This document shows, piece after piece, positions 3 to 64,000 of a DNA stretch of 64,000 nucleotides (position 1 is the first letter of the stretch; each line of letters opens with the position of its first letter). The stretch comes from Candidatus Omnitrophota bacterium. GTDB taxonomy: Bacteria; Omnitrophota; Gorgyraeia; Zapsychrales; Zapsychraceae. The stretch covers positions 77,573 to 141,572 of the forward strand of contig JAJDCA010000075.1 of assembly GCA_029261055.1 (NCBI GenBank), in the 5' to 3' direction. A program made the translations under genes and the position numbers. The notes under the pieces are model-generated. The model made no database searches, was not told the origin of the DNA, and saw only the letters and a list, made by a program, of their open reading frames with translations.

Positions 3-3000
3 TGGATAAATCGAGGGTTTGATAAATTTATAAAAAGGCTGGCCTCAAAAATCAGCAAGGACCAGAGGGATATTCAGGAGCAAGTTATCAAAGGTGCTAT
101 TAGTCGGGCAAGAATCGCGTATCTTGACAATTTTCAAAGTATTGTTTCTTTGAGAAAGGTTCAATACAGTCAAAGACTAGCAGATAATCTGCTTGATGTT
201 TTTTCAGAAGAGATAAATTTGATAACAGCACAGCTTAAAAATTACCGAGAGGTAAGCATATCTTCAGAAGATGCCCTTTATGTAGGATTGTTTGATGACC
301 TTCTTCATCTTTCCGGTGAGTTTATCCAAACAGAGGTATGTACGTGGTGTGATAGGGCTCGGCAGGTTAGGGAGGGAATGCAAGAAGGTATTCATTTTGC
401 TGTTATTGCTTTGAAGGATGCCCAAGGGCGGATATTAGGTTTTTCACAGGTCCAGATAATTAAAACACCCCTAAAGGGGAGTAAAGAAGAAGGTTCCCAG
501 GGGTATCGGGTTCTGTCCCTTACAGGGATAAATCTTTCCGAAAAGGCGATTCCGATCGATAGAAAAAGGGCGGTTTTGGTTATTCTTAAGGCAGCTTGGA
601 GTTTAGCTCAGGCTGCAAACTTACAAAAGGCAGTTGTCATTTATGCGAGTAATCTCCATTCAAATCAAGAAGACGTAAAGAGATATATTAGTGAATTTTC
701 AAGTCAGGGATATCTGAAGAAAGGCAATCTGCTTGAGACGGTAAAGTTGAGTCATAGTCCTTCGTACAGCTATCAGGAGGTGTATGTAATCGACAATCTA
801 CCGGAGATAGGGCTCATTACTACAGATAAAGAAGAAATAACAACGGCCCAAGAGAAGGAAGATTATCTTTTAGAGAGAAAACATTTAGGTTTTTATAATA
901 ACCTTGGCCATATTGTGCACAATGGAGAGTTGTCAGAAGAATATGCAGGGATGCTTAAAGAAGAGATAGAAGGAATATTAAAAACCATGCCGCAGGATAT
1001 TATTGAAGATTTAGGGCTTAATTTTGCCGGTGGAGGGATCAGCTTTAATGTCATTCATGAACCCTCTTTGGATCGCAGCACGATAAGCCGGACTCAGGAG
1101 GAGATTACGCTTTATTTGGGGGTGGATGTGCTCTATGGGGAGGGGAAAATTGAGACCTTAACGTTAAGGGAGCTTTTGGGCGAGGTTATTGCCTCTGTTA
1201 TCCTCGAAGATTATCAGCAATTGAAAGAAGCTTCAAAGACCAATGAAAACGCGTATTTTAAGATGGAATTGATAAAGGTGCTTTTAAATTATCGGGCTTA
1301 TTTGGCACTATATCATAAGTTGATTCAACGGAAAAACTGGACACCAGAAAATTATTTGGATGAAAAGATTGCGCAGGAAAGGAAGACATTATTAGCTGGG
1401 TACAGACAGGATTTGGAGAAATTTACAAAAGGCATGCATGGTGTCGCACAGTGGAATGTTTTTCTGAATATCATGGATGACGCGGATCCGGCATTTATGG
1501 TTATAAATTATGTGCATATCCTATTAAAAAATTCCTCATTAGACGAGAAGGGGATTTATACGATAATGATGAAGGTTAAAAATATGGATGTCTTGGGCAA
1601 ACCCAGCATTGCGCGGTTGAGGAATGTATTAAAGGAATTCTTTTTATCCGGGAAGGTAAGATTAAGAATAGGTCAAAAGGTAATAAACAATGAACGGTTT
1701 GATAATTTTGATGATACAGCTGCATTAACACAGGTCAAAGATACCCTGCTGACAACACAGGATGCCAATATTTTTTATCAATTAATACGAGAGGTTTTAT
1801 CTGGTTTACTACCGCTGGATGAAATCGGACTCAATAGTGAGATAAGCGATTTATTCGAGAAGGATATATTTTCATTGCCGGATAGAGAGGGTGTTTTAAG
1901 AAAGGTAATCCAGGATATTTTTACAAGACGCATAGGCGGAAAGGCTTTTATAGCATTAAAAGCACATCTTGCTGCAAATAGAGGGTTTAAAGAGATTCCT
2001 TATATAGAAGTTTTGAGTCAGGAATTAAATGAGGGAGAGGATGCCGATGATTATGAGTTTTTAAGGTACGTTGGGAATGAGGATGGTTTATACAAGTTGA
2101 TTTCAGATGAAGGTGATATAGTTCAGACACGGGATTGGGTGAGCCAGTTGTTTGTGATGAACCAGGAAAATGATGAGTCAACGCAAGCTTCTCCTCTCAA
2201 AGCTAATCAAGTAATACAAAAAGAGTATGAAGGAACAAGTTTTCTCGCCAAAGTCATAGATGCCGTACGTGGGAAAATTAATATTTTAAAACAAGAGGGA
2301 CAAATATGGGACGTAAAACGTAGTGAGGCATTAAAGATTTTAGCGCCATATATTTCTTACCTTGTTAATGCTCCACCAGATTCCATAGAAAAATTTGATG
2401 AAGTACGCCTCACCGCAAGTTTCAAAGGCACCAAAAATTCCTTCCTCGCTGTAAAATCAGAAAATGGCCGCAACATTCTTTACATTCATCTCTACGCCGT
2501 AGATAAGGTTGCTGATTTAGTTTCAAAACAGGCCGATAAAGATAAAGACTTTTTCCTTCAAGCCTTTGCCGGTCAAATCCGTCATGAACTTGACCGCCAT
2601 ATTAAGGAAGGCCTTGCCGATGGTCCCGAAGCCCAAAATCGTGACCTCGCCGACTTTACCAAACCTCAGCATTTAGACGAACTCACCGCCACGGTGTATG
2701 TATTAGATCACCCAGAAACATTTTATCTTCAAACAAATAAAGAATTTGAAACTGAGCTTAGAAATATTTATGCGATGTACAAGAAAAAAGAATCTACAAA
2801 AAGGCTGTTGCCCGAGGGCGATATAACTTCCCGTGGCGGGTTGAATGCCCTTGTAAAACTTACGCAATATGGGTTTAAGGCAGCAGTCTTTTTCGTTGGT
2901 TTTGTTGTTCATTTGGGAATAGTGACGGGTGTATATTTACTGTTTGTAGCTGGGGGGCGTTTGTTGTTAAAGGTTGTTGATGTATCGTTCCCGATTTGGC

Positions 3001-6000
3001 GAAGAATCTATGTTGAGTTGACACGTATCACAGGAGGATTTAATGATAAATCTGATTCTGAAGGAAATGAGAAGCCAGGCTCAAAGAACAAAACGCTTCC
3101 TAGCTTTGATCTCATGGCGGCAACGTTATTCGGGTATTTGGTAGCAAATCATTTAACAATTATGTTATCAGCTGGCGCGATTGCTGCACTTGTTGCGTTG
3201 AGTTTATTTGGAAAAATAGGAAAACGAACTATAGGTGAAGCAATAATCAATTTAACAAAAAGGTCGTTGCACAAGGGCTATATAATCTCCCGTGGCGGGT
3301 TGAATGCCCCTGTTCGGCTTCTTGGTTGGCTTGTCCGGCATACCGGCAAGGCAGCGGCCTTTTTAAAATATTTTAAAAAGAACTCTTTTTATTTTTTCAA
3401 TGGAATGAGTGTTGAGGGTTCCAAGAGTTTTACGTATGAGCAGCTTATTAATAGTAATAATTTTACTTACTTTAACAAGAGAGGCTTTTGGAAGGTTTCC
3501 AGTTTGGATTTCTTGTTTATTGAGAAGATAGGCATCATTTGGAATAGTTTTTGGGATCTTGGAGGTAATCGCCATAGCAATGACATCCTTATGGGAGGCA
3601 TTAAATTTATCGGAAGAGACAATAAGGGCAGGTCGTTGTTTCATGGTGGAGAAATCAGTGAAAGGAAAAGGAATAAGAATGATATCGCCCTGTTTGTGGC
3701 GATTAGAGGTCATCATAAACCGTATCTTCTGGGTTATTCCAAAAATCAAAGGAATTTTGAGCTGTTTTTAGCAGAAGAAGGTCATCTGTTGAAATTTTCA
3801 ATAAACGGGGAAGATCATGAAGGAGTTGTCTTTGTTTTTCAATTCCAAGATGAGAAATATGTTCTTCAAGCATTTTTAATGTCATCCAAAGTTCCTCCTT
3901 TAAGATTTATCGGGACATTTATTAATCAATTTATCCTTAGTGCTTCAAATATAACATATCTTTTAAGTCAGGGCAAGGCAGCGGCTTTTTATTCAATTTT
4001 AGCTAAAAGAGCAATTTTCTTATCGTCTGCTCCAGAAGGAACCCTACGGGTATCAAATCCTTTTTGGTTAAAAATTTTAATTAGTTCATGGGGAATATTT
4101 TCATCAAAAAGAAATTTCATAGAAGGTGTTGGGTTAGTTGACTTTGGCAAAAGGAACCGATTCACCGGTTCTAACGAGTTTGGTAGCAAAATGAAGCGCA
4201 GCCTGGATATGCTTTTTAGTCAGTTTGGGATAGTAGCGAGTGATGATTTCAGTGACCTCGATGCCGGCCTCAAGGAGTTCCAAAACAAGATAAATCATAA
4301 TGCGGGTTCCTTTAAAGCAAGGCCGGCCGTGGCATATGCGGGGGTTGATATCTATGTATTTACGGTAGTTAATCATGTATTTACTCTCCTTATTAAAAAG
4401 GATAGTCGGTCAAAATTAGTGTTTAACGGCAGTTTTGGAAAGTCTTTCTACAATCCATTTTTGTACAAGCCGGTCGTAAAGGATTCCTTCTTTGGTAGCG
4501 AGACGCCGGAGTTTGGCCATTTGACGAGGCTTAAGGGTAATCAGCAGATGGCTTGGTTTTGGGAATTCGAGATGCACTGGCTTCAATTCATCAAGATATT
4601 GAGTGCTGTCATGAGTATCCCAAAAGGCGGCAGCATCCGCGTCATTCTTAAATTTAGGGATTCTTTTGGTCGACATGTATTACCTCCTTTGAAAAAGTTT
4701 TTGTTCGGATCGGGACATGTTTCTAGCCGTAATAATATAGGCCAATCCTTTAGATTCATAGCGAGCCACCATAAACAAGTATCGTCCGGCGTACGATTGT
4801 CCGTAAATAAGATAAAGTCCATCTTTAGATTTCTTAAACAATGGTCGTCGGTAACAGGCTTCTTCCACTTCTTGAGTGTTCACTCCATGTCGCGCAATAT
4901 GGTTAATGTTCCAAGCATCCCATTCAAATTCAGTTATTCGCATCAATTTTCCTCTTTGTTAAAAAGGGTAGCATATGGAAGTAATGGTGTCAAGCTGCCG
5001 CAGGAGGAAAATCGACTAAAAAATAGTAATTCGCAATCAGGATGGTTTTTGAAAGCGGCCTTTTTTAGAGTTTTGAAAACGATAATATGGCCTACGCAAC
5101 AGCGTGTTGTATTTTTAGGGAAAGTAGCCGGTTTAACGTTAGGCCTTCTTCTGACGGTTATTGCGCCTGTTTTTGCTGGTGCTGGTGAGGTTTTTGTTGG
5201 CGGGTCTCCGGTTTGGATTGCGTTGGGAGGAATCATTGGTATAGGGATAGTATTAAACCTTTATAGGCGTGGGGGCAAAAAACAAGCAGAGGAGTTAGGG
5301 AAACAGGCAGGTACGATAAGGGAGGAAGGCAAAAAGACGGTATTACAGGTGATTAGCTCTTTTGCGATTGGTGGGGTGTCGCAGATGACTTCAAGTCTTT
5401 TATCAGATATAGAGAAAAATAGATTTACGGCAATAGTTTTATCCAGACATGTAGAAGGAGAGCGCGATAAAGAAATTGATCATCTTAGAAACAATGGTGT
5501 GAATTTTATTTTTGAGAAAAAGCAAAATTCATTTTTTAATAGTTTAGTCGATAAATCTATTATTCAACGAATAATATTCACGTTTATGTACATAAATAGG
5601 ACTATGTATAAGCCGTTCATTGGGTACTATTTATTTAAAACAATACAACCAGATGTGGTGCATTTTCATTCATCAAAGGGCTTAAGGCATTTTCCTATTA
5701 AATTTATTGCAAAGTTTATAATCAATGGCCCTAGAATTTTAACGACATATCATGATTCTGCATATGGTAGGAAGAAATTAATAAAGAAATATGGGCTGAT
5801 TTTAGGAGGTGTGATAAGCATTGCAAATTATTTTGATATGCGATTTATGAATGATGCGATTGTTGCGGTGACAAAAGCCCAAAATGTTGGTAGCGGCTCT
5901 AAAGTTCAGGTGATTGAAAACGGGGTTAATTTCGACTCGGTTCAAGAAGCCACACAGGATTTCAAACAGACCAGGTTTAAGGAATTAGCGAATACATTAA

Positions 6001-9000
6001 AAAATAATTTTGTCTTAGTAAATATTGGCGGGTTACATTCAGATAAAGGGCAAAAATATTTAATAACAGCTATGCAGACAATTATTAAGAAAATATCTAA
6101 CGTGAAGCTTCTTATTATTGGTGAAGGTCAAGAATATCAATCTTTAGAAAATCAAATAAAAGAGTTGAATCTTCAAGAGAGTATTGTTCTTTATGGAGCA
6201 GTAGATAATCAAGATGTTTCAAAAATTCTTTCTTTTGCAGATATTTTTGTTTTTCCATCAGTGTTTGAAGGGCTTCCTTTAGCCCCGTTAGAAGCCATGG
6301 CTATGGCAAAGCCTGTTGTGGCGAGTCGTGTAGGGGGGATCCCTGAGACTTTAGGTGAAGATGAAAGTGCAGGGTTATTAGTTCCTGCCAAGGATCCGAA
6401 AGCGTTGGCGGAGGCCATTATTCGGTTACATAACGATAAAGAATTATCTAAAAAAATGGGTGAGGCTGGACGAAATATAGTTCTTGAAAAATATACCGCT
6501 AAAACCATGGCCAAAGAATACATGGCCTTGTATGACCGCCTTCTTCTCGAAGCCAAGCCATTTCGTGTTTTGCGTTTGATTATGGATATTTTTCAGCATA
6601 TTTTATCTAGAACTCGAACTTTCTTTTTCCCAAAAAATTTTGATTACCATTTTGTTTTGAATCTAGGTTGGCAGGCCTGGTCTAAATTATTCAGCCTGCC
6701 AAGGTATATTCGTATACCTGTATTTATTTTCATTATTAGTGCTTGGTATATTTTTGGATTTCCTAGTATTGCGTTTGCTGATGGTGTTTTCTTTAGTGAG
6801 ACAATTTTTAGTTTAGACGTATTTGACTGGTTGTCGATTGTTTTGGGTGGGGGAATATTTATTTTTGTTGGGAAGACTTTTGGCATGTTTAATGACGGGG
6901 AGGAGGATAACGTTAAATATATTCCTGGCAAAACACAAGATGACGAGACTAAAAGACATGTCATGAATATTTATGATTCACCACCGAAGGGTGAGGAATA
7001 TCAGCTTTCTGCCAAAGAGGCGTATGACCAGATGGAAGCATTATTTGAAGAATACCAAAGTAGAATTGACAACTGGGAATATATCACCAATGGGGTGTCT
7101 GAAAAAGATTTTGCGCTTATTACGTATGCGGATTCCGTAACAAATAAGAATCAACCTAATGAAAAAGCTCTTAAAAATACATATAAACTTTTTAGAGGGA
7201 TTAAAAAAAGTAATGGGGGAATTAAAAAAACTAATAAGGGGAGATTTCCATTTACGATTTGGCAGCCAATATCCTTATTTCCTTCCAGTACAGATCGTGG
7301 TTATGGTGTGATTGACCATAAGGTTGTGGATCCTCGATGGGGAGACTGGGAGATGGTGGAGAAAATAGTCAAAGAATTCAATCTTAAATTGCAATTAGAC
7401 TATGTCATGAACCATATTTCTGATCAGAGTGAATTATTTACGGAATTTTTAAACGGGAATGAATTGTATAAACATTTCTTTACGTATTACAGGGCGACAT
7501 ATATTCAGGAAGAAATTGATGGGGAAATTGTTTATATGCGTAATGACGGAAGCCGGAGCCGGTTTGTTAATGGCGATGAAGGGGATCGTATTACGATAGA
7601 TATGTATAACGACCCAGAACAAAATATTCTCTTTGATCAATGGGATAACCGCGTGGATCGAAAGGATTTTGATCTCATAACCCGTCCACGAACTTCTGAT
7701 TTATTAACGGAAAAGACGCGGATAACGACAAGAGAAGATGGAACAACAGCAGCTATAAAAGTTATGGTCTGGACCACCTTTAGTCCTCACCAAATAGATT
7801 TAAACTGGCATAACCCTGCTGTTTTGGTTTTTATGACGGATGTATTTTTAAATCTTATAAGCCATGGGACAAAAATTGTCCGTTTAGATGCCGCCCCCTA
7901 TATATGGAAAGAATTGGGGACAAACAGCGCTCATCAAAAGAATGCCCATAAATTGGTAAAACTTTTCCGTTCAATGGCTGAAAAGGTTGCCCCTACTGTC
8001 AAGCTTCTTCCTGAAATTAACGCATCAATTGAAGATGCCAAGAAATATTATGGCGATGAGAGACATCAAGATGAAGGTCATATTTTATATGATTTTGGTT
8101 TCTTTCTCGAAATGGTATCGGCGCTCCAAAAAGGGGACGCCAAAGAACTTAGAAAATATCTTCAAATGCATCCCCATGTAAAGGAATATTATTGGTACGG
8201 TTTGCTTAAAGGGCATGATGGGGGGCCATTGTTAGCGGCTCAGAATATTTTGGATCCAGAACGATACTGGGATGTGATCACTTCATTTAAAGAGCACAGC
8301 GAAGATATGTATGGTAGGGAATTAATTATGTATCGCAAAGTTAAAAATTTAATGGATTCGCTTAAAGAGGATAATAACAGCTTAAGCACACATCTTAAAA
8401 ATATTCTTGGAAAAGAAAAGGTGGATGCCACGATTGATTTTGCTTTAAGCCTTTTAAAAGATAAAAAAGAGCGGCCGTGGGAATTTTATAAGAAGCTTAT
8501 AAGCTCTGAAGAAGTTCCATACGAATTAAATTCGACGGTGTGGAGCCTGTTGTCTTCTTATAGAAAAAAGGGAGAGAATATGTCCACGACAGCAGCTCGA
8601 TATTTTGCTGCATATGATCCAATATTCACCGAAGGCGTTATTCCTGCGATAGAAATTACGGACTTTTTTGGAATGGTGAATATGACTGCAGAGTACAAGG
8701 CGGTGGTTACCCTGGATCAATTTAAAAAAGCAAGTCTTTCCGAAGAGGATTTTAACATACTGAAAGAAATGGAGTGGTTTAAATTAGAAAAAGGAAGTCA
8801 AACAGAAGGATCCTTTAGAAAAGAATTGAAAAATATCAGAAATGATATCGAAAAAATGTTTTCAGATAATATAAAACGTAAATACGTCATCGAGGTTTTA
8901 GAGGCCGCTTTAGAAGAAAGATCATTACGTAGTGTTCACCGTTTTCATATAGAATTATCTGATGCTATAAGAAGAATGAATGATGAATCGCCAAAGGGGC

Positions 9001-12000
9001 GGGTACAGCCATTATTGAGGCTGGCTAATTATAGTAGCGAACATAAAGCTCTTCATCCGGATGGTGAGGAAGCGGTGATTGAATTAGCTAATAAAGAAGT
9101 TTTTGCCTTGGCGCGTAAACATGATGGGGAGGCTATCATAAGTTTACTGAATGTTTCGGGAAAGGCCCTTGACCTGGAAATACCGATTGCACAATTTTTA
9201 GCTAATGACAAAATTAAGTCCGGACCACTATTTACACGTGGCGATGAGTTAAAGATGTCGGATCTTATTCGAGAGGAAGAAAAACATATTTCATTAGATG
9301 GGAATATTGAAGTAATACGTATTCATATGGAACCGTATCAAGCTCTTAAAATTGAGACAACTGTCAAGGAAGATGAAATTGAGGATGATAAGGGGGCGCA
9401 AAGAGTAATAAAACTTTTTCAAGAAGGGTTGGCGCGCGCCGCGGTGGGTATCGGTATTATTTTTACAACCAGTTTGTTCGGGTTAAGCGATATAGCTACT
9501 TTTTTCTCATTTTTTATAGGCACAGTATTTTTAACATGGCCGTTGCTGCACCTCGACGTCCTTCCCGTGGTGGGTCGATCGCAGACTCGGGTTCCCCAAT
9601 CCAATGTAGCAGCAGCTTTTAATGTTGAGCCATTTCAGGGCGAAGATAAAAAATCATCGAAGGAAATTATGGATGTCGCAACAATTGAGTTTGAAGAATC
9701 TATGGATGCGTTGGGTAAAGAAAATAATCTTCGTACTTTGGAAGAGGGCGTAAGCGTGGCGTCCTCTTTGGGAGACGGTGCAAGAATGTCGAGAATACAC
9801 ACAAGAAGAAAAATGCCAACGCCAGCGCAAAGAGATAAATCGTTTTCTTCTGTTAATCTCGCTTTAGCACATATTTTTGAGGAAGATATTTATTTAGATA
9901 AGATTTGGAAAAGTGTATTAATGGTTTTTGGTGTGATTCCAGCACATGAATATGGGCATCGTATTCCAGGAAGCCGATGGTTTGAGGAAGGGCCTTTGAT
10001 GGATAAAATTTTTACAGGCACGATGAATTTGACGCGCGGATCGCCGCTTTCTGTATTCTTTTGGGGACCGATGATGAATTTAGTGGTCGGTCTCGGAATT
10101 GTCCTTTCCGTTGCATTGATCGGATTCGGTAGCATCTTCACTCCTCTTGCCCTCTTCGCCGGCACACTTCATTTAGCTGCTTTTATTTACGAGTTTGTTT
10201 CTCCGCAAGGAGATTTTCAAAAATTATATCAAGGGCTGTCGCACCGTAACGTTACCTCCCGTGGCGGGTCGGTCGTTTCGGTTGTAGTAGCGGCAGCCCT
10301 TAATTATATAAAAAATTTAGCCGCTGTTGCATCTCGTCGTCCTTCCAGAGGTGGGTCGATCGCAGACTCGGGTTCCCCAATCCATGCAGCAGCGGCTAAA
10401 TTAGCTAAATTTATTTTAAAGTTTTTAAAAAGGTCGCCGTTTATAACTACAGCGTTCCGCTTCCCGTGGCGGGTCGGTTTCGCTGTTCTAAGCGGCATCC
10501 TAGCGGCGACCTTTTTATTCTATTTTCCTGACGTAACATTTGACTCGAGCAGTCACTGGGAATTCCTCCTCTTTAGTTACGCGGCTCTGAGCAATTCTAA
10601 AGATTCTCAAAATGATGAAACGCAAATAACACAAGGAGGTATACCCGTGAAGGTTGGTGACTTTATGTCGGTTGATCTTTTGTTTGGTAAAGAAGCAAAA
10701 AATATAGTGTTCATGAGCATGGAAAACGTCCGAGAGAGAAAAAGTACTGTTGTGATATTAAAGAATAGATCGACGGGTAAAAGATTAAAAGTAAAGTTTG
10801 TAGCAATAAAATCGGAGGGTACAGAAGGTCTTTTAGTCAAATTTCGAAATCCGCAACGATCGCAAGAAGACTCATCCGTTTATAAAATTTATAAGGATAA
10901 GGATAAAAAAAATAAAATAGTGTTGGCGGATAAAAATGGAATACACATCAGAAATTTAAAGAATTTAAGAGGACGTATAAAACTTAACCTTAGCGAGGTT
11001 GCTAAACCCCAGAGGAGTTCTTTGCTTAGAAATTTCTTTTCTGAAACGGAACAAGCATCTCATGCGCTTGCTGTGGAGGGGGACAGGGTAATTAGACCAT
11101 ATTTAGAGAAAATAGGATTTTCAGAGGAAGAAATTATTGAGCTCGACCCTACAGAATATTTTTTAAGAATTGTTAAGAAATATAGAAAGAAGTTTGGAGA
11201 AGATCAAGAAGGTGTTATGGATGAAGAGTTTGTTATTGCAGAAAGGGTCAACGGAAAATTCCAATGGCGCCTTAGAGGGGGTGAAGAGGCCTTTAGGGAA
11301 ATGGCACAAGTAAATTTACACTTACTAAAGGAAGAAATCGCTTATCTTCTTATGCAGATTAAAGTTCATGAAGCGGGGGAAGATGAAGAAGAAGGCATGG
11401 ATAATCAAATAAAAACTATTGTATGGGTAAGAAATAATATACGGCCTGAGAAGGACATTCCGACGGCTCTTGATATTCCGCAAAGTCTCAACCTTAATCG
11501 CACAGCTAAGGCGGCCCTGGTAGAGTACCTAAAAATTTTAAATAAATCAAGAAGAGTGAATCCTGTCGGGGAACGGATTAAAGACGCAAAAGGTACTTTG
11601 GCCATTTTGGAAGATAAATTGAGTGGGTTGGAACGAAATAATCCCAAAAAGCTTTTGAAGGATGTCAGGCGTATGAAAATATTGGCAAGCAAACTCATTA
11701 ATTCCATGCGGTTAAGAAGGGACATAGGCCCTGGATATTCTTATACATTAAGAACGCTTAATAAACGCGTTACACGGTTAGCCGTCGACACATTAGACGC
11801 CATATTAATAGCGGTTGATACCTCTGAAGCCGATAAAAAAACTACACGTAAACTATTATTAACGGCTAAAAGATTTAAAGACATTATTGAATATAGTATT
11901 GCCTACGACGACATTATTAATAATCGGGAAATTATTGATACAGTTAAAGGATACCGGATACCTTATATTTCATTGAATTACAAGGGAAGCGTGATCAGAT

Positions 12001-27000: not shown

Positions 27001-30000
27001 CACAACGTCCGCCTAAAGATAGTCATGGGCAGGTGTATGGGGATAGGGTTATGCTTTCTACGAATTGGCGCTCGCATCCATTTTTGGCCTCATTAATTTC
27101 TGATTGGAGCTACGATGGGGAGCTGATACCTAACGGATATGTAGATTTTGATAGAGATACATTCCGGATTATCAATATTTCTGATAAAGGCGTTGTAGCT
27201 GGAGCTATGCCTGAAGATGGTTATGAAGAAGCGGTGGGAACCTCTTTTAAAAATACTACTTCCGCGAATGAAGTTACGAAGGTTGTAAGACAACTCAAGG
27301 GAAAGGGCGTGAAGGCGCGGGGTATTACCAACATTACAGGTTATGCCGCACAGGTTGCATTGCTTAAAGAAATATTAGAAGGTATTGAGACTTCATCGAT
27401 TGATAATTTTCAGGGTCGGGAAAGTGATGCAACCATCATTGACCCTGTCCGGAGTAACCGTTTTAATGATATAGGGTTTATTAGCGACCTTAAGAGATTG
27501 TTGGTCGCTATGTCACGAGCTAATAATTATTTGGTCTTTGTTGGGGATATGAACACGATGTTAGGTGAACTTGATAAGCAGAAGCGCCCACATGATAAAA
27601 ATCGACTTAAAGAAATTGAAGATGCTAAAAGTCTCATGCAAATCATGTTTAATGATTATCTGGATAAATCCAGTATTTTCTTTGACGGGCCTCCACTTAT
27701 AGTTACTTGGTCTCCCCATGTTCAAAGTCTTTCGATGGATATGCCTTCAGCCAATCTCAAGCTGGCACGGATTGCCGATGGAATGGAAGCTTCTGTAAGA
27801 CCGTGGGTGCGATGGCTGGGTAAAATGCTTAAATTTTTCTTAAAATATATATTGGTTATCTTAACCCATGAGCTTGCACATTATTTGGGGGCGATGTTGT
27901 GGAAGCAGAAACCACGTGCTACTTGGGAGGAATTGAGTACAGTTGGTCGTACGCATGACGTTGACGGTGCCCCGCGTTTATTCGGCGCTATTGCCAATCT
28001 TATCATTGGTTTGAGCCTTGTGAAAATAGCCTTACTTTTTGGTTTTACTTTCCTTCCCTACGCAATTCTTGCGGGACTGGCTGCATTCATTGCCGCTTTT
28101 TATCTTTTCGCTGCGGTGATTGATATCATGCATCCACGCGGAGATTTTGCGCAATATGTGCAAGATCTGAGGGAACCGGTTAAAGATTTTTTTCATAACC
28201 TCAACTCCAGATTTGTTAAAACATTAGCTGTTTTTATTTTTATTATGGGGATTATCCACATTCTGCAGCCATGGGGTCTTGGGGTGCACATTGCTAATAT
28301 TGGTTTTGGGGTGTGGGGGGTTGGAAAATTAAACAATGCTAGTGTGGGTGTGAATATTGACCCAAATGGTCAGCGCATGGGGCGTCAGGCTTTTCCTGGG
28401 TTGATGGTGTCGATATCCGTTATGGACGCCGGGGCTGAGATGCGTGTCGAGGATAATCAGGGGAATGAAGTTGTCAGTTATAGTGGTTCGATTAAGACGA
28501 TCATCGACGTGTTACCGTATTTACAGTCGCGGGGTGTAAGCGCGATATACCTATACGGCGGTATTTATACCCCAAGTGAAATTTCGAAAGTTCTGCATCC
28601 AAAACGACGTTTTGAAGAAGAGCTGGTTAAGACAGAGAGAAAAGGCACCTACGTGGTCACAAACTATCCTGATAACAATACGAAGCAAATAGGGAATAAA
28701 AAATTTGCGGATGTTAATGGAATGCCTTTTTCTATGATGGGTATGACTGAAGATATTGCGGATCCGGAGAGTCTTTTAAAAATTAATCCTCAGCTTTCGG
28801 ATGGCAATGCCAGGGAAGATATTTTTGAATTGATACAAATAGCTAAGAAGTTAGGGTTAGAGGTTTATGCTGATTTAATTCCGTGGCTTGCGCCGGACGC
28901 GATCACGGCAGACAATTATCATTTGTTTTTGCATAAAGAGGTGGGGAATGATGAAGAGGAGACAAGGAGGATTAATGAAGAATTTAGTAATCTTCCTAAT
29001 GAAGAAGCCGAAGATAAATATCTTTTTAAATTTCTTAAATCTAAAAATGAAAGTTACGAATTTTATTTTGCCAAATGGATTCCCGAAAAAAATAATGAAA
29101 GAATTGTTCTTTTCCCTCGAGCAGATATTAATCTTCCTAGTGCCGATCAGGTGATATTAAATATGTGGCTGCCGGAAGTGCAGGCGTATTTAACCAACGC
29201 GGCCGTGCAGTGGTCCAAGGCCGGCGTGACAGGTTTACGGGTTGATCTGGCGGCTAAATTATTAAATAATAAATTAAAACGCCCAGAATATTCGAATCTT
29301 GTTACAGCGGAACAGAAGGAAAAAATTGAGAAATTTTACAAAAAAAGTTGGCAAGAATTTATGGAGTCTGACGATCCTGAAGATGAACCTTTATATCGCG
29401 TTATTCAAGATACGAAAAAAAAGATTGGAAATGAAAAACAAATGGCCTGGCTGATGGAGGCCTATGAACGAGGATATGATAATGCGGATATGTATACACG
29501 GTTATTAGATATGGATCCTTCTGTCAAAATGTATTTCGAATGGGTTAAGTTGGCTTATGAGGATGATGATGCGGGAGAAATGTCCAAGAAAATTTATAAT
29601 ACTATCTTTAAAAAGGAATACCGTGGACGGGTTGTGGTTTATGGGGCAAATTTTGATGAAGAGTCTCTTGTGAATATGATGGGTTCCCGGGAAGGATTAT
29701 TGATGATTTTGATTACTTTGGCTTATTTAGACGTCGGAGTCATGATTGACGTACGTGAGTGGATGGGGCATTCTGGGCAGATGATTAAAATCTCAGGTCC
29801 GAATCATCCATTTTTGAATGCGGAAGAATTGGAAGTTCGTTTAGAACCTAAGGGGTATGAAAAGGCATTAAGGCAAGGCCCGGTTGATCAGCTGATTAGA
29901 GACTTTCTTGAAGCCGTTCCTCAAGGGGATGTATCTGTAATTAGCGTAAAAAGTTCGAATAAGTCAGACAAGGATCACAAAAATAAACTTCTTAAGATTT

Positions 30001-51000: not shown

Positions 51001-54000
51001 TAGCCCCGTGGGCCGCACGGTTAGGAAAGAAGACGTATGCCACAATTACAGCGTGGATTGGTTTGGGTGGGCTTACTATCGAAATTCCAGCATTGGTTTA
51101 CGCGGCATTGTTTTTCGGGCCGCTGGGAATGTTGGCTGTCATCGCAGCTCTGGCTGTGGGCGAAATCCTTTTAGAGCTTCTTGCGCTATGGCTGCTACCC
51201 GCGCGGGCACGAGGGGATATTGCCCGGCATACTTTCAAATCTATTGTACGTACCTTCAGCCGGAAGATGCGTGTCCTCTTGCCCTACGTAGGTCTGGCTA
51301 TCCTGTGGTTTGTCATTCCCTCAATCAGTTTTACCTTAGCCATTTTTATTCCCAGCTTTCTTATTCCCATTCTTTTTACCGTCTTCTTTCATGGCATTTA
51401 TGATATGAATTATTTCCAAAAGGTCTTGGAGATAGGAATTGATTGGGATAGAAAAAAGTATTCTTCTGTCGGCGGCGGGCGAAGGTTTGATGATGTCGAG
51501 AAACTTTTTAGTAGGGCTACGCAGCATGACCCCGACGCCCTGGGCCAGTTGGTTGCGTATCAGAAGAATTTTCCTGAGTTATTCTGGAGGCAGGTTGATT
51601 ATTTTTGGTATGACCGGAGCAACATCAATCATCTTCTTAAATTAGGTCAGGCCTCTGTTGATAGTTCTTTGAAGTCTAGAGAAATTCCTATTCCTAAGGT
51701 GATCAAGGATATTCCTCATTTAGATTTTTCCAGGGCAACCCCAGAGGATTTATTAAATCAAAAAGAGTATGAAGAGGTAAGAGAATTAAATTCAAGTCCA
51801 CAGGCAATAGTCTCAGCGATAAGGAATGTTTACAGACCACAGGATATAAACTTTAGTCTTTCTGAAACATTAGTACGCCGAGTTGATATCCATCAAGATG
51901 ATTTGATTCAAAAGGATTTTGAAGCAACCATTAAGAAGAAGCTCGGTAAAGATCAGGAAATTAATATTTATCAAATCGGTCTTGGAACCGAATATTTTGA
52001 AACTTCAAGTATTTTCACCGTATTAGAAAACGCATTTGACGCAAACAAGGTGTCTCCCAAAGATCAAAAAAAATGGACCATTAATTTTATTGGGATTGAT
52101 TTTGATTCAGAAGTTATTGAGAATTTTTGGCCAAGAGTTGTCGTGGAAAGCCCCTTTAACACCAATCTTAAGATTGGTCAGGGGGATACCCTTTATGAAG
52201 AGGCCATGCAAGAATTAAGCAAGTGGTATAAAGCTGATTATATTTTTCACCGGCATGTTTCTTATGCGAATCATTTGATCAGCCAGGGTAGTCTTTATTA
52301 TCCGGAAAATTATGAAGAAGTAGTAGATGAAAATGAGTTAAGCGCAATGATTAATGTTTATGCATCGACACGAAATATATTAAAACATTTAGCTAAGCCA
52401 GGGACACATTATATTATTGAACCCGCTCAAAACGGACCATTCCCTTTTGTGTTTTATATCCCGGGAACCGAAATTATTACAGTGAATAAACTCGAAGGAA
52501 ACAGAAAATATGATGATGAGCATGATATTAACAATATTGGGACAGGCATTCATGAGGTACTTGATCCTGAGAAGGTGGCCGAGGAGGGTATTAAATATTT
52601 ACTACAGTACAATGCGCATAAGAATAATTTTCAGGGCAACTTAGCGTACGTGTTGGGAAAAGAAGGTCTGGACCCATCTTCGTGGTTTTATTATTTCACC
52701 CGGTTTATTTTGGCAGTATTGATAAAGTTTAATGTGATGAAATCTGCCAAAGTAAAGTTGGGTAAAAAAATCAGCACGTGGGTCGGCCTCGGCGGGCTTG
52801 TGGTCGAGATTCCGGCGCTTATTTACGCGGCGCTAACCTTTGGCCCTCTGGGAATGCTGGCAGTCATCGCTACCCTGTCTGCAGGCGAAATATTCCTGGA
52901 ACTTCTCACCCTTTGGCTGTTACCCTCCCGGGCACGAGGAGATGTTGCGCGTTATGATGGATATTTCATTCTGCAGCTGTTTGGCAGAAAGATGATGGTT
53001 CTTTCACCTTACGTATTCCTCTCTTTATTGTGGATTCTTGCAACGCCCACCGGAGTTACGCTCTTCTTGCCCGTCCCCATCTTTATTCATGCAACATATG
53101 ATTATTATCAATTGCGAGATAGTTCCTCCGTAGGGACAGGTCGTAGCCTATCTTTACATCTGAAAAATATTCTCAAGATAGCAGGAGAGTATGTGACGAG
53201 GATTGTATCAAAAGTCCGAGCGCTCGGACTTTTGGTCAATGAAACTTTGGCCAAAGGGGCAGTCCTATCAGCCGGTTTGTGGTTAGTAGCCCCAGGGACT
53301 GTGCTGGCAGGCGGCATTACCGGTGGGGGGCTTGGAATTATTGAGCTGATTTCAGGGCAACTTCTGGAGATTTTAGTGAGTATAGTAGGGACGTTTACAA
53401 TAATATTTATTGTAAATACACTTTATAAAAAACGTGTTCGTGCAATCAGTAAAGATATGAAGGCGGAGATTTACGCGTCTTATAGTGTAAAGGCTGATGG
53501 GGATGAAGGGGCATCCGGAAATAATAATTACGATGAAAATCCAGGGTTTCAAAAAGCGGTTAAATCTATTTTTGGCCGCGCTGTTTCTACCAATTTTCTA
53601 AAAAAATACGAACATAAACTAAATGTTCTTGATTTATTAACAGGCCGAGGAGTTGTCCCATTTTTTGCTGTCAAGGCAGGAGCTAAGTCTATTGTAGGTG
53701 TAGATCATTCAAACCAGAATCTTGAATTGGCAAAGGCATATTTGGTAAAGGTTACTCACTTGGCAAAGGTACGTCTTATTGAAGATGACGTGAAGCATTT
53801 TTTGAGTGAATTTGAAAAGGATAGGCCCAGCATGGGGGCATTTCATATTGTCACCATGGTCAATGCTGTACATAGATTTGATGCAGAGTCTTTAAAATTT
53901 ATTTTTTCACAATCATTAAAAGTGCTGGAAGCGGGAGGACGATTGGTTTTATTGACACACGTTAAGCATTTAAGCCTCGATAGGGCAGGTTCATGGAAAT

Positions 54001-57000
54001 CATCGGATATCAAAGCCTATCAGAAGTTTTTAAAGAAAAGTGGTTTTATTCACGTTAACGCTTATCCAGCTGGGGAAATAAAGGGTAAAGTAAGAGTTTT
54101 TAATAAAAGTCATGAAGAAGAATTAAGAGATGCGCGTTGGACTATTGTTGTTATTGCAGCCGAAAAACCTGAGAATGATGCCTCCAAATCTTCGCGAGGC
54201 GCCCCCAGGAAGCTTCCCCAGATTTTCTACAAATTTTTCTTAAAACATTTTGTGAATGTAATAGTTCCTTTCCTCCTTTTTGTTCTCATCTATATGATCA
54301 GCGGGATAGAGTCTGTTTGGGCGGAAGGGGTGGTTGATAACATGGGCCTTATGCATTTAGGGCAAGCCGAAGTTAGCTCGCTGGGCTTTTTAAATCCGTT
54401 GGGAGATTTAGTATGGTTAGTGCCCATGGTGTTTATGGGAGGGATTAATGTTCAAAATAATCCGGAGGAGAATTCAACGAATGTGCGTAACGTCGTCCTT
54501 GATGAAGAGTTTATACAGGAAGCGGAACATGTGAAAAATCATTTATTAAAAGTTATAGGGGATGCCTTTAATATTGAAGATAACAAGGATTCCCCTCAAG
54601 CCCTTGCGCAAATTGCTGAAGCCTTTGCGCAGGCAGGTTTTATGACCCAAGCTTTCGACTTGGCCATGGAGGTTATCAAAGAAACAGAAACTATTATTCC
54701 ATCTCCGAAACAATTTAACGCCCGTGTTAAAGCCGCCGCTGTCCTTTGGAATATTGGTTATCATAATGAAGCTAAACAAGCCCTTAAAATTATAAATAGC
54801 GAAAACGGATCACATATAGGCAAAATTAATAATCTTTCAATATCATTGGCTCCTGAATTTATTCTACAGCAGCGGGGGCTGGTTGCACATGAGGAGAGTC
54901 AAAAAATTCGTAAGAATATTAAAGAAAATGTTTTTTATGGGTATAAGGAAAATCCTGACAGGAAAATTTCTGATCTTACGGTGTTAGCCTCTGCATTAAT
55001 TTCGGGAGAGTATCCTGAGGAAGGAAATTCGGTCCTTGATGATGCGAAAATAATCGTACAGGAAGGGATTAAAAAAAGTGCGGTTTGGGAATGGATTGAG
55101 GCCATCTCTGATTTGGCTGTTGTGTTTGCGCGTGCCGGTCGCGTACCTGAGGCCTATGAGATCATCGTAGGGGCACAGGGTACACCACTGCGTCAAGACA
55201 CAAGCGACACGCATAGGCATTCTGAGGCCCTAATTTCACTTGCCTGGGCTTTAATTCAGACTGGGCATAGAGAAGAGGGGCATACATTGATGGATAAGAT
55301 ACGTGTGAATATTGACACCGATAATTCTAAACTTAATATGCGGATTTTGGCGCGTATCGAATTGGCCATAGTGTTTGCCTTGGAGGGTAAAATTTTAGAG
55401 GCGAATGAGTTATTAGATCAGGTACGGCATGAAACCAGGACAATTTTAGATGAGAAGGATGCATTACGATCCTTGATTGTTAGTAAAACGATGTCAGCGC
55501 AGTCCGTGATTTTTCATGAGGCGTTGATGGCAGTAGCACCTTCTGTACGTACGCAAGTGATGAGTGTTTGGCCTTCTATCCAGGGCAAAGTTTCAATTAC
55601 GTTAGCGATAATTGGTGTAAAAGGACTTCTGAGTGAGGCTCCGGTGATGGAAGAGGTGAGTCCTGACGTATGGAAAAGGGTATGGAATAATTTGGAATAT
55701 ATTGACGTTTATCCATCACAAGGGGTACTGCCCACAGAGACAAACAGGATTTTGTTTTATATTATAAAATTGCTTAAGCGACCCGTTAGAGAAAAAGGCG
55801 ATTGGGCATTCTTAGAGACTCCGCCGTTATGGTTTAACACTATGCTTAAAACCCAATCTTCTCAAGGTCTGCCGTCATGGTTGACAAAGATTTGGCCGCG
55901 TTTTTCTTTCAAAGACAGACTTAGTTTTGGTTTGCTTATCATCACAGCAAAGATTCAGCATCTTCCTATAGAATGGCTGCGAGAGATGCCGCGGGATCAG
56001 CGTAAATACGTCTATTTTCAAGGAATGTTGAGCTTTTGGTGGGGCCAGGAATTCGGCCCATATCAAAAGGTGATGAAATCTCTTTTGAATCAGATTCCTC
56101 CTTCATCAAACTATGAAGAGCGTGTTCAATTTATTCATGCTTCCGTCATGTTGATGCGTTTGCTGGTGAGGGTCATGCCGACATTTAGGAGGCTGAGACG
56201 AACTGATTTTCTCGATGATTTGGTTAGCTCTTTATCCAAACCATCTGCAGTCCCTCTACTGGAGAGGATTCGACAAGTAGAGCAGGACATTAATAAATAT
56301 CTATTTAATAAAGTAGAAGATCTTTTGCATATTACTCTGGATAAAAATTATCCTTTGGATATTCTTCCCGACATCGATCTTTGGAGGGCTGTTTTTAATT
56401 ATGATTTGCAAAATGAGCCCCGTTTGCGTGATTTGTTCGGGCAATACGTATTGACATGGCAGCGCACCAGTGATTCAAAGCAGGCGAGCGTGGCGGCCTG
56501 GGAGTGGTTACAGTCTTCGTTAGAAAAGGAGACTGGAGAAAAAGTGAGTTTTGCTCATGATAGCGCGCCTGCACCTATGTCTTTTATGGGTAGTCCTAAA
56601 GTAAACCGAGCGCAAGCAGCTCAGGATGCTGTCGCCCAGCAGTATAAGGAGGCGCATTCTTTAGTGCAGCAATTGATTCAGAAATTACCGGGAGCAACCG
56701 TTACAGACGCTTTGAGTCAATTGTTAACACAATGGGGTGAACCCGGTACCCCATCTGAGGAAATAGTGAATCAACTAAGAAATTTATTAGGTCAGATTAA
56801 GATAACAAAAGATTTAGAAGTATACATAAAAACAATACGTAAGCATCTTCAGAAAGTCAAATCAATTGCCGGTGAAATTAATTATTTTGATGGGTCTCAG
56901 AATGTTCTCATTGGGGTTAGCATGGATCCGGTAGAGCGTTTGCATCTCGGATATCCTTCCCTTGGAGGCTCATGCCTGGATTGTATGACAGGAGGCGCAA

Positions 57001-61652: not shown

Positions 61653-61794
61653 GAAAAAATAGACGCTATATTTAACCCGTTATTTCTAAACGAGTAATAA
61701 AACAAATATATTCTATGAAAAAAAAGACTATGTCGATAATTTTTGATAATTATTTTGTGTTGTTTGTAATATTGACACAAAGTGGCGTACTTAT

Positions 61795-61811
61795 GTCAGT
61801 GCAACTGACAA
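61795..61811. terminator. Short hairpin TGTCAG-tgcaa-CTGACA between convergent giant gene and mutL (possible bidirectional terminator)
   Basis: 6-bp perfect stem with a 5-nt loop in the 175-nt convergent intergenic region. There is no clear U-tract. Confidence 0.25.
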
Positions 61812-61827
61812 TGTAAAGGTGGTCGTA

Positions 61828-63681: not shown

Positions 63682-63690
63682 AATTTATTA

Positions 63691-63960
63691 AAGAAGCAGA
63701 GAAGTAAGAAACAAGATGCAGAGATTTAAAATGAGGGCCAGAGGTGTAAGAAGTAAAGAATAAAGAAAGAGGAATTAAAAAAATAGAGACAATTTTTAGT
63801 AAAACAGTATTAAACTTTTTCTTTTTTTTACGTCTCTACTTCTCACATTTTTGTTTCTTACATCTCTGCTTCTTACATCTTTGCTTCCTGCTTCTCTACT
63901 ACAGGCATCTTTACTTCTTGCTTCTAACCTCTCTGCTTCTTGATTCTTTGCGCCTTTGCT
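63691..63960. repeat. Imperfect inverted repeat (63691-63715 AAGAAGCAGAGAAGTAAGAAACAAG versus reverse complement of 63850-63874) followed by CT-rich tandem motifs (cttcttacatct / ctgcttct) upstream of mutL
   Basis: 23 of 25 positions match between the arms, with a spacer of about 135 nt. The motif AGAAGCAGAGA recurs at least three times in reverse complement across 63850-63960. Confidence 0.5.
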
Positions 63961-64000
63961 TCTATTTAACTGTTTCTTTCAGCTTCCCCAACACATTCAA

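Follow-up and report, generated by a model that had tools for sequence, protein, structure and literature searches.

A hairpin-forming repeat family inside a giant open reading frame of an Omnitrophota bacterium and its association with an antisense toxin–antitoxin island

Results

The host ORF and its toxin–antitoxin island

Most of the window (the whole 64,000-nt stretch of DNA that was analysed) is occupied by a single giant ORF (Table 1). The frame with coordinate mod 3 = 0 contained zero stops across bases 1–61652, whereas the remaining plus-strand frames had 30–78 in every 2 kb. Pfam content was that of a multi-enzyme protein, with GT4, alpha-amylase-like, FBPase_glpX, TPR, HD_5+GGDEF, AAA_11/12 helicase, methyltransferase and HTH_3 domains; no integrase, transposase or RAYT was found in the 64 kb. 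Logan contig SRR15505515_378, from an independent assembly, matched window positions 51828–64000 with 0 mismatches in 12,173 nt, and a Logan contig end falls at approximately 10355, within element e5. Giant multi-enzyme proteins of Omnitrophota have been described as ‘Archaeovorins’ (10.1101/2023.11.21.568195 and 10.64898/2026.06.07.730766). The host gene resembles these in its length of tens of thousands of codons, its many transmembrane segments and its modules (GT, TPR, FBPase, PGM/PMM, GGDEF and methyltransferase), and differs in that no SecA_DEAD domain was found among the Pfam domains of the window. Palindromic or hairpin repeats and opposite-strand genes within giant genes are unmentioned in either report.

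A group of toxin–antitoxin (TA) genes lies antisense within the giant ORF, whose frame stays open throughout. There is no intergenic space, so the initial annotation’s picture of an island between genes does not hold. All four intact Pfam-matched TA genes are codon-aligned and contain zero TTA, CTA or TCA codons (joint P ~1e-11), which indicates that both strands are under selection; for mazF, which has none of these codons, codon resampling left the plus frame open in a fraction of 0.0004. The 60-aa ORF upstream of and overlapping mazF is a possible MazE-like antitoxin on the basis of this position, its status as a gene being uncertain since it has no family match. The frame of the DUF5615 remnant ends in a repeat-derived segment (tail 2, below).

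Table 1. Features of the giant ORF, the repeat elements (e1–e6) and the TA island. Coordinates are those of the window; bit scores are for the covariance model (elements) or Pfam profiles (genes).
Feature	Coordinates	Strand	Core	Details
Giant ORF	1–61652	+		at least 20,550 codons; extends past the left edge of the window
e1, subfamily A	2798–2893	+	2829–2843	arms AAAAAGGCTGTTGCC / GGCAGCAGTCTTTTT; MFE −40.4, z −3.4; 90.7 bits; translated as KRLLPEGDITSRGGLNALVKLTQYGFKAAVF, directly followed by a hydrophobic segment
e2, subfamily A	3257–3364	+	3288–3302	arms AAAAAGGTCGTTGC / GCAGCGGCCTTTTT; MFE −47.3, z −3.3
mazF/PemK toxin gene	3363–3749	−		full length, codon-aligned; PF02452, E 1.1e-18, profile 1–108 of 109
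Possible MazE-like antitoxin ORF, 60 aa	3703–3885	−		not codon-aligned; no Pfam hit
Tail 2, solo copy of e2 3' arm (GGCAAGGCAGCGGCTTTTT)	3972–3990	+		no 5' arm partner
DUF5615 (PIN-like toxin) remnant	3989–4189	−		PF18480, E 1e-4, 22.5 bits (cut-off 23.8); profile 1–45 of 110 only
DUF433 antitoxin-type gene	4134–4376	−		full length, codon-aligned; PF04255, E 1.9e-20, profile 1–56 of 56
CopG/BrnA-type antitoxin gene	4416–4676	−		full length, codon-aligned; PF12441, E 1.2e-14, profile 1–78 of 79
BrnT-type toxin gene	4680–4946	−		codon-aligned; PF04365, E 6.6e-6, profile 1–77 of 77; 26.8 bits (cut-off 34.5)
Tail 3, partial 3' arm copy AGCGGCCTTTT	5054–5064	+		1074 nt (3 x 358) past tail 2
e3, subfamily B	9533–9622	+	9563–9577	closing helix 9538–9550 / 9605–9617; 89.8 bits; core translated as LPVVG
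e4, subfamily C	10228–10304	+	10257–10271	arms AAGGGCTGTCGC / GCGGCAGCCCTT; z −4.95; 32.8 bits, E 1.9e-6; core translated as SRGG
e5, subfamily B	10314–10402	+	from 10344	19-bp closing stem; variant core TCCAGAGGTGGGTCG; z −6.2
e6, subfamily C	10426–10517	+	10462–10476	perfect 14-bp arms TAAAAAGGTCGCCG / CGGCGACCTTTTTA; z −4.9; 93.6 bits; core translated as FPWRVG

Copies and anatomy of the repeat family

Six copies of the core TCCCGTGGYGGGTYG were found in the window at a threshold of ≤2 mismatches (2829–10476, all on the plus strand), against a chance expectation of 0.11 and with no other match in the 64 kb. This agrees with the at least six copies reported in the initial annotation, at positions 0–5 nt away from those given here. 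Every core lies within an imperfect palindrome of 75–110 nt with a closing stem of 10–15 bp, for which the consensus is (A)nGGYYGYYGY ... RGCRGCRRCC(T)n; the interior is branched and variable, with a conserved mini-hairpin core, UCCCG-UGG-CGGGUYG. The G+C content of the elements is 0.47–0.60 versus a background of 0.39. Covariance model R1, run over the 64 kb, returned exactly six elements, including e4 although it was absent from the seed, and Rfam gave no relative.

All six elements are inside the one stop-free plus-strand ORF that reads through the antisense TA island, a setting that the initial annotation had overlooked, and each copy is stop-free in its translated phase. Hydrophobic segments adjoin the copies, which lie in loops; across the remaining 53 kb no copies were found in other membrane-anchor loops, of which there are many. 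The pairs e1/e2 (86% identity across 59 nt) and e3/e4 each bracket a short module. The module enclosed by e3 and e4 has a paralogue at 27747–28238, in which the covariance model placed no elements.

The covariance model also detected three tandem copies at positions 2255–2506 of a second locus (L208), on the MAG contig CAZCLW010000001.1. These lie within another stop-free ORF, with PGM_PMM, HATPase and PALP domains, for which blastp gave no similarity to the giant ORF of the window. The source genomes differ in G+C content (0.39 vs 0.53), and the core is strongly conserved between them. In total nine copies in three clusters are known, six in the window and three in L208. Genomes and metagenomes were scanned for exact patterns, in one case among the matches listed, so absence elsewhere is weak evidence.

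Conservation of nucleotides rather than peptide

Core starts in the window fall at mod 3 = 0, 0, 2, 0, 0 and 1, with translations SRGG (four copies), LPVVG and FPWRVG, and those in L208 are in phases 1, 1 and 0. The core is translated in all three phases and is therefore not a peptide repeat. Identity of the 15-nt core was 88%, alike for same-phase and different-phase pairs, while the 15-nt flanks on each side were at 32–35%; for different-phase pairs the values were 0.88 in the core and 0.32–0.34 in the flanks. The arms are more constant in phase: the 3' arm is in a single phase in 9/9 copies, read as Ala-Ala-Ala, and the 5' arm in a common phase in 8/9. The initial annotation had described two similar copies in shifted frames, and these were recovered at 9539–9603 (e3) and 10320–10384 (e5), with 91% identity over 65 nt; since their offset of 781 nt is 3n+1, the two are translated one base out of phase, with a common phase restored by the 3' arm. 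The conserved unit is thus the nucleic acid and not the peptide, as had been proposed from the window, and with the copies in the unrelated ORF the motif extends beyond one gene and one frame.

Hairpin structure and strand

Folding of the units gave hairpins, with z between −3.3 and −6.2 for e1, e2 and e4–e6. Across the nine copies, 86 of the 90 cells of the 10-bp helix are paired, and changes on both sides occur in 10/15 arm pairs; none of 500 shuffles matched the observed pairing or covariation. Pairing was 87.7% in the real register vs 36–54% in slid registers. The arms of e3 and e5, which are recent duplicates, show four differences, and pairing is kept in all four.

On the plus strand the nine copies contain 12 G·U pairs vs 1 A·C. 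The plus strand also folds better in 8/9 copies (sums of −345 vs −291 kcal/mol). The maintained hairpin is the sense-strand one, as mRNA or single-stranded DNA. Sense orientation is shared by all nine copies, each of which would also have a stop-free phase if reversed, although with three clusters orientation and phase amount to only ~3 independent observations.

Copies of the 3' arm around the TA island

The tail GGCAAGGCAGCGGCYTTTT occurs as exact copies at 3345–3363 and 3972–3990 (0.03 expected). Tail 1, the former, is the 3' arm of e2, and the TA island begins directly 3' of the last stem base pair of e2 (3364), in the element’s final bases, where the mazF stop overlaps the T-run. Two more copies of this arm divide the island: tail 2, which is 627 nt (3 x 209) past tail 1 and coincides exactly with the cut point of DUF5615, and tail 3, after which the giant ORF reads KAAFF... 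and then a hydrophobic segment, as after e1. The tails do adjoin the mazF and DUF5615 stops, as noted previously; both stops (3363–3365 and 3989–3991, TTA on the plus strand) are made by the T-run ends of the tails. A terminator scan did not call the elements as terminators, and the proposed roles of the elements as cassette carriers or as terminators are unproven.

Discussion

Rickettsia palindromic elements (RPEs; Ogata et al. 2000) are described in the review PMC10969869 as hairpin-capable segments of ~100–150 nt lying in frame inside protein-coding genes, where they add a peptide segment tolerated by the host protein; there are several subfamilies. The elements of the window are likewise hairpin-forming, intragenic and in frame, with several subfamilies, and their in-frame survival resembles that of RPEs. 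They differ in sequence family and lineage, being found in giant ORFs of PVC/Omnitrophota-type metagenome genomes, and their core is read in three phases, whereas the review has every RPE encoding a conserved peptide. RPEs are scattered over many genes, whereas the copies here form clusters or tandem arrays within the membrane-anchor loops of one giant gene, with an arm that appears to be the insertion point of antisense TA cassettes. Short inverted arms and a stable hairpin are shared with REP/REPIN elements, MITEs, and the SPRITE and BOX/RUP clusters of Streptococcus pneumoniae; clustered copies, with elements beside or inside one another, recall BOX, RUP and SPRITE, and the terminator-like A-run/T-run ends recall SPRITE (PMC10969869). 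REP/REPIN elements, MITEs and the pneumococcal families are overwhelmingly extragenic, whereas the elements here are intragenic and translated, and no target-site duplication, GTAG-type REP head, RAYT or IS partner was identified for them. With its inverted arms, hairpin and clustering, the family is fairly described anatomically by the earlier term ‘MITE/REP-like’.

The observations of the initial annotation were confirmed overall and their interpretation was partly supported; an attC-like identity was not. TA cassettes are typical integron cargo, and attC sites too are structured, strand-specific imperfect palindromes (57–141 nt) directly after cassette genes, partitioning an array as repeated sites. 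It is conceivable, though improbable, that the elements are recombination sites of a cassette-capture system working like attC/attI, in which a site-specific recombinase acts on the folded element, or on its 3' arm, and inserts modules and TA cassettes into giant genes. Such a system would account for three copies of one 11–19-nt arm bounding and partitioning the island, the pattern expected from successive single-crossover integrations at one site, as well as for the overlap of cassette-gene stops with the site, the strand specificity of the fold, and the short modules bracketed by e1/e2 and e3/e4. However, the arm ends lack the R''/R' consensus (RYYYAAC / GTTRRRY), no bulged or extrahelical bases interrupt the 10-bp conserved part of the fully paired closing stems, and no integrase lies in the 64 kb. 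Nor does each cassette carry a complete site: tails 2 and 3, which lack a 5' arm, are half-sites that repeat one arm directly and are not separate attC sites, and the array is antisense in an open ORF. Truncation of DUF5615 at tail 2 also resembles illegitimate or homologous recombination more than precise site-specific exchange. Relics of intergenic bidirectional terminators, left by fusion of separate genes into the giant ORF, would explain the A-run, G+C-rich stem and T-run of e1, e2 and e6 and the location at module boundaries; this reading is already close to refuted by the mutual homology of the copies, also across genomes, by a shared 15-nt core that a terminator would not need, by tandem triplets and ‘loops’ of 45–80 nt, and by the result of the terminator scan and stems still under selection.

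A linker repeated as peptide (KR-x-L ... SRGG ... AAAF before a membrane helix), with the PWRV and PVVG copies as decayed frame-shifted duplicates, would fit SRGG in 5/9 cores, the KR.. and AAA peptides given by the arm phases and the constantly adjoining hydrophobic segments. It is very unlikely, being already disfavoured by core identity (0.88) that is equally high across phases with near-random flanks; PWRV is moreover seen three times across two genomes, and substitutions in the arms compensate one another in the RNA and alter amino acids (L/S/P). Host cis-acting RNA structures are a more serious, if still doubtful, alternative: sense hairpins would act on the transcription or translation of a >60 kb transcript, possibly by pausing for membrane insertion of adjoining hydrophobic segments, 3' exonuclease protection, processing, or by letting an antitermination factor re-load at the conserved core. 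The compensatory changes and G·U bias towards the sense strand point this way, as do the uniform sense orientation even though reversed copies would have one or more stop-free phases, the constant placement beside hydrophobic segments and a core common to two unrelated giant ORFs in genomes differing in G+C. Against it, in 69 kb of giant ORF sequence no more than three anchor loops out of many contain copies, the tandem triplets and the variant core of e5 appear redundant rather than functional, and Rfam holds no relative. Both the conserved hairpin and the strand bias would also be seen with a mobile element of REPIN type, since REPINs are expected to have hairpin-dependent, strand-specific biology.

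The reading that we prefer, with a probability of roughly 0.5, is that of an RPE/REPIN/MITE-like sense-strand hairpin element that giant genes tolerate in their membrane-anchor loops and whose 3' arm is a recombination hotspot. Copies in an unrelated ORF and the element-free paralogue at 27747–28238 support independence from the host protein. No target-site duplication was definable at the elements, and neither an empty site nor a presence/absence polymorphism was observed, so that mobility is inferred. The lack of copies in the other membrane-anchor loops fits sporadic insertion or local duplication, but local duplication alone could yield clusters within a gene; the strong conservation of the core in genomes of 0.39 and 0.53 G+C could equally reflect a host function.

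As a mobile family, the elements would behave like RPEs, REPINs or MITEs, spreading or duplicating as selfish DNA via a hairpin intermediate. Because the giant ORF must remain open, the survivors would be only stop-free copies that add 3n bases. Two antisense TA cassettes may then have integrated at the hotspot in the 3' arm of e2, each leaving an arm copy behind (tails 2 and 3); tail spacings in multiples of three and the truncation of DUF5615 at tail 2 support such a hotspot. The TA cassettes would persist because their codons have been chosen to keep the giant frame open.

Structure and extent of the repeat family

The six core copies, the tail motif and the frame-shifted pair described in the initial annotation were all recovered. 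The conserved 15-nt core TCCCGTGGYGGGTYG occurred six times at up to two mismatches, against 0.11 expected, with all copies on the + strand between 2829 and 10476. Exact copies of the tail motif GGCAAGGCAGCGGCYTTTT were located at 3345 and 3972 (0.03 expected), with a shorter version at 5054, and the stretches 9539–9603 and 10320–10384 were 91% identical while reading one base out of phase. Core start positions modulo 3 were 0, 0, 2, 0, 0 and 1, giving SRGG in four copies, LPVVG in one and FPWRVG in one.

Folding of each unit, as proposed when the repeats were first noticed, placed every core within an imperfect palindrome of 75–110 nt, with minimum free energies of −33 to −47 kcal/mol and z-scores of −2.1 to −6.2. 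The closing stem has the form (A)nGGYYGYYGY ... RGCRGCRRCC(T)n, with inverted arms of 10–15(19) bp. The six hairpin elements, designated e1–e6, form three subfamilies of two copies each (e1/e2, e3/e5 and e4/e6). A covariance model seeded with five copies, leaving out e4, recovered e4 at 32.8 bits (E 2e-6) and nothing else convincing in the remaining 53 kb of the window. Rfam 15 had no match at gathering score over the whole window and none at E <= 1 in 2700–10600. Candidate solo arms were seen at 7981, 13891, 36094 and 44966; the two inspected, 13891 and 44966, were without a partner arm or core. Directly 3′ of e5, at 10394–10412 (+), GCTAAATT occurs in tandem (GCTAAATTAGCTAAATTT), with an alternative outer pairing with 10302–10321.

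Positions of the elements, antisense genes and other features (window coordinates unless marked L208, the second locus)
Feature	Position	Strand	Remarks
e1	2798–2893	+	
e2	3257–3364	+	
e3	9533–9622	+	
e4	10228–10304	+	
e5	10314–10402	+	
e6	10426–10517	+	
Tail 1	3345–3363	+	3′ arm of e2
Tail 2	3972–3990	+	copy of e2 3′ arm
Tail 3	5054–5064	+	copy of e2 3′ arm
TA island	3363–4946	−	three TA modules, antisense inside giant ORF
mazF		−	full length, E 1.1e-18
Possible mazE		−	no family match
DUF5615 remnant	3989–4120	−	profile positions 1–45 of 110, below cut-off
DUF433		−	E 1.9e-20
CopG/BrnA antitoxin		−	E 1.2e-14
BrnT		−	E 6.6e-6, below curated cut-off
Giant ORF	1–61652	+	stop-free; left end beyond window edge
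e3–e4 module	9621–10230	+	HExxH-type motif (AHEYGH), then hydrophobic segments
Paralogue of e3–e4 module	27747–28238	+	30% identical, THELAH..., without elements
Perfect palindrome	53209–53234	+	13+13 nt, no spacer, in giant ORF
mutL	61828–63681		domain search; downstream of and convergent with giant ORF
Inverted repeat	63739–63883		just past mutL start; 52-nt arms, 41 nt between
L208 elements	2255–2506		three tandem copies
L208 antisense ORF	138–1184	−	348 codons, no Pfam family

Conservation of the hairpin rather than of the encoded peptide

To the six window copies were added three from L208, the contig CAZCLW010000001.1 of a metagenome-assembled genome, and these nine related sequences were aligned by hand-set stem anchoring. 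With the caveat of this chosen anchoring and of so few, related sequences, 86 of 90 cells of the 10-bp helix were paired, and both partners had changed in 10 of 15 arm pairs (C-G to U-A, for example). None of 500 shuffles reached the observed pairing or covariation, and sliding the partner by one to three columns lowered pairing from 87.7% to 36–54%. The recent duplicates e3 and e5 have four arm differences, all of which keep or improve pairing. On the + strand there were 12 G·U pairs versus one A·C, and the + strand folded better than the − strand in eight of the nine copies. The G·U excess and the better + strand folding indicate that selection acts on the hairpin of the sense strand, either as RNA or as single-stranded DNA.

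The core showed no covariation and was instead conserved in sequence. Its mean pairwise identity was 0.88 compared with 0.32–0.35 in the 15-nt flanks, and pairs in different phases gave the same value (0.88 versus 0.32–0.34). With cores in three phases, this bears out the earlier proposal of a nucleotide-level element rather than a protein repeat. The opposing possibility, that the motif belongs to one gene and reflects a conserved peptide in one frame, was not supported: in addition to the three phases, copies are present in L208. The arms are fixed in codon phase (5′ arm 8/9, 3′ arm 9/9, the latter read as GCN GCN GCN, Ala-Ala-Ala), and the arm-to-core distances vary through compensating indels, those in e3 and e6 being phase-shifting. 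All nine copies lie in sense orientation and each has at least one stop-free phase if reversed; since they represent only three independent clusters, this bias is suggestive at best.

Distribution and second locus

A gapped pattern scan over 185,579 species genomes returned 96 matches, of which only L208 was real; the others were chance matches in G+C-rich genomes. L208 is labelled 'uncultured Planctomycetales' and has a G+C content of 0.53. One frame of its 8-kb stretch is stop-free and carries PGM_PMM, HATPase and PALP modules. Its cores encode NLPWRVV twice and ISRGGLK once, and its copies, too, sit between hydrophobic segments. Blastp detected no similarity (E <= 1e-3) between the L208 ORF and the 20,549 residues of the window, and the element family therefore recurs in unrelated giant ORFs. 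The antisense ORF of L208, in codon alignment with the PGM_PMM region, probably stays open by chance, lying as it does in G+C-rich coding DNA.

A metagenome pattern scan gave at least 120 single matches. Among those read, the sequences were either chance matches or conserved coding motifs from ordinary genes, for instance SRGG-type motifs in dehydrogenases and aspartokinases, and among the matches listed none passed the element model as a real copy. The viral contig scan likewise yielded no real copy. All nine copies (six plus three) are inside giant ORFs, a distribution that rests on 72 kb, made up of the 64-kb window and 8 kb from the second genome.

The giant ORF

The + frame at coordinate modulo 3 = 0 contains no stop over the span tabulated, a length of at least 20,550 codons, compared with 30–78 stops per 2 kb in the other two + frames. 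Its Pfam domains comprise a GT4 glycosyltransferase, an alpha-amylase-like domain, FBPase_glpX, TPR, HD_5+GGDEF, an AAA_11/AAA_12 helicase, two methyltransferases and an HTH, in modules separated by hydrophobic segments. This membrane-anchored architecture matches the giant multi-enzyme proteins published for Omnitrophota (10.1101/2023.11.21.568195; 10.64898/2026.06.07.730766). Window positions 51828–64000 are backed by an independent assembly, being identical to the Logan short-read contig SRR15505515_378 (0 mismatches in 12,173 nt). This contig breaks off at about 10355, within e5, at a stretch of 35 bases that is identical in e3 and e5, which indicates that the repeat family fragments giant-gene assemblies. 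The repeats thus matter in practice for the recovery of giant genes from short-read assemblies.

No close relative of the giant ORF was found in the protein and genome collections searched. A search of genome contigs gave no relatives of the residues from 5100–9500, for which the protein search returned nothing beyond generic glycosyltransferases, with identity of about 30% and coverage of 12%, and no homologous proteins were found for 9000–11000. Consequently, no orthologue or empty site was available for comparison.

Several further features of the region were observed. In translation, about 15–22 kb (+) contains two long paralogous stretches, e.g. ...YQVAHDFKMDAPSFMNKT...GKVFILGIIKDY... and ...YQVAHDFQMTLREFVRKT...GKVFIVGIIKNF..., whose sequences indicate an apparent old internal duplication of a multi-kb block. 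The e3–e4 module may be intramembrane metalloprotease-like and could process the giant protein. The perfect palindrome CAAAAGTCCGAGC|GCTCGGACTTTTG is a weak match to the element model (15.5 bits) without a core. The A+G-rich / T+C-rich inverted repeat near mutL has arms that are 71% complementary.

Antisense toxin-antitoxin island

The toxin-antitoxin (TA) island consists of small genes arranged in pairs and carrying domains of toxins and antitoxins, as in type II systems. Between 3364 and 5053 the giant frame has no stops, compared with 36 and 58 in the other + frames, and its read-through of the island would include the peptide ...SFTYEQLINSNNFTYFNK... Codon alignment with the giant frame was seen in all four intact Pfam-matched TA genes. 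In this layout TTA, CTA and TCA are the only − strand codons that give rise to a + strand stop, and they were absent from the 382 codons of the four aligned genes, compared with 9 of 126 in the two non-aligned ORFs (Fisher P = 2.8e-6). TTA is the commonest leucine codon in the giant ORF. Resampling of synonymous codons gave frame-open probabilities of 0.0004, 0.10, 0.11, 0.04, 0.004 and 0.02, or jointly about 1e-11.

Both strands of the island are under constraint: because the four aligned genes avoid stop-making codons, continuity of the giant frame has been selected and the opposite-strand genes have also been kept. Ribosomes would then have to be able to cross this stretch, and the antisense, codon-aligned layout would be the sole arrangement allowing this at no cost to the TA proteins. 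In the window and L208, no further antisense ORF of 100 aa or longer matched a Pfam family. A protein search with the concatenated TA query had no match at E <= 1e-5, an uninformative result probably reflecting a word-index limit, and exact protein look-ups of DUF433, CopG, MazF and BrnT found none on record, which would be expected of gene callers that choose the giant ORF.

Copies of one element arm delimit and subdivide the island. Element e2 is intact, and the island starts immediately 3′ of its last stem base pair (3364), with the mazF stop codon (3363–3365) overlapping the T-run of its 3′ arm. Copies of this arm recur 627 nt on, past mazEF (19 nt), and 1074 nt further (11 nt), both distances being multiples of 3. 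DUF5615 is cut exactly at tail 2 and its DUF433 partner is intact, so that DUF433 resembles an antitoxin orphaned when recombination took place at this tail. Past the third tail, the giant ORF reads KAAFF... and enters a hydrophobic segment, which also happens past e1. The tails and the truncation are consistent with the 3′ arm having recombined repeatedly, or with cassettes having taken the place of the 5′ parts of earlier tandem copies.

Comparison with known repeat classes

Rickettsia palindromic elements (RPEs), SPRITE and element clustering have been described previously (PMC10969869). Like RPEs, all nine copies lie in frame within ORFs free of stops and add no stop when translated; unlike them, the encoded peptide is not conserved across the three phases. 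Assignment to the RPEs by sequence is thus not supported, the lack of an Rfam match being itself no test of RPE membership. The suggestion of a MITE/REP-like element holds in part. The terminal inverted arms of 10–15(19) bp and the unit size of 75–110 nt, under ~300 bp, resemble MITEs, whereas the elements differ from REPs and REPINs in being intragenic rather than extragenic, in having GTAG only in e3 and e4, and in the absence of a RAYT from the window. There was no consistent direct repeat as a target-site duplication, the A-run and T-run ends pairing mutually and leaving the boundaries ambiguous, and no transposase in the window.

The suggested attC-like identity was not borne out. The ends are (A)nGGYYGYYG / CRRCRRCC(T)n and not R″ (RYYYAAC) / R′ (GTTRRRY) boxes, the closing helix is continuously paired, the tails are half-sites only, and no integron integrase domain is present within the 64 kb. 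A-runs and T-runs flank the stems of e1, e2 and e6, enclosing a 'loop' of 45–80 nt. The terminator scan called no element, and only sub-hairpins at about chance frequency; antisense e2, which in sequence has a weaker stem followed by UUUUUG, is a possible candidate terminator. Also rejected were a DGR template/variable repeat pair (e3 and e5 do not differ specifically at adenines), a −1 frameshift signal (canonical slippery heptamers are not formed by the A-runs, whose spacing to the stem is ~0) and an RfaH ops-like site (only 7/12 matches by eye).

Interpretation

In anatomy and evolution, the elements fit a selfish repeat of the RPE/REPIN/MITE kind that depends on its hairpin and is tolerated in linker loops, within a gene whose frame has to remain open. 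Their mobility is putative, as no empty site, target-site duplication or transposase was found. Foremost among the rival readings is that the elements serve the host as RNA within the giant transcript, which the same hairpin evidence supports, although the copies are sporadic and redundant in their distribution, and this speaks against it.

We consider it unlikely that the element is instead the attachment site of a cassette-capture system for giant ORFs. Defence and addiction cassettes, in this case the three TA pairs, would integrate at the 3′ arm, antisense and codon-aligned, and would be free of stops and of length 3n in the host frame through either pre-adaptation or rapid selection. If so, the giant gene would be a 'safe harbour' translated straight through its passengers, elements and cargo would be one growth route of giant genes, and the stop-free antisense island would be direct evidence of selection on end-to-end translation of the giant ORF.

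The portions of text searched in the two giant-gene papers (10.1101/2023.11.21.568195; 10.64898/2026.06.07.730766) mention no palindromic, hairpin or inverted repeats and no antisense genes. The elements constitute a new structured repeat family, so far specific to giant bacterial genes and present in two unrelated giant ORFs, and their evolutionary signal of compensatory changes, strand bias and phase independence is unusually clean for so few copies. Well-supported two-strand coding constraint in bacteria is, to our knowledge, rare. The case at the TA island bears on whether giant genes are truly read as one ORF.
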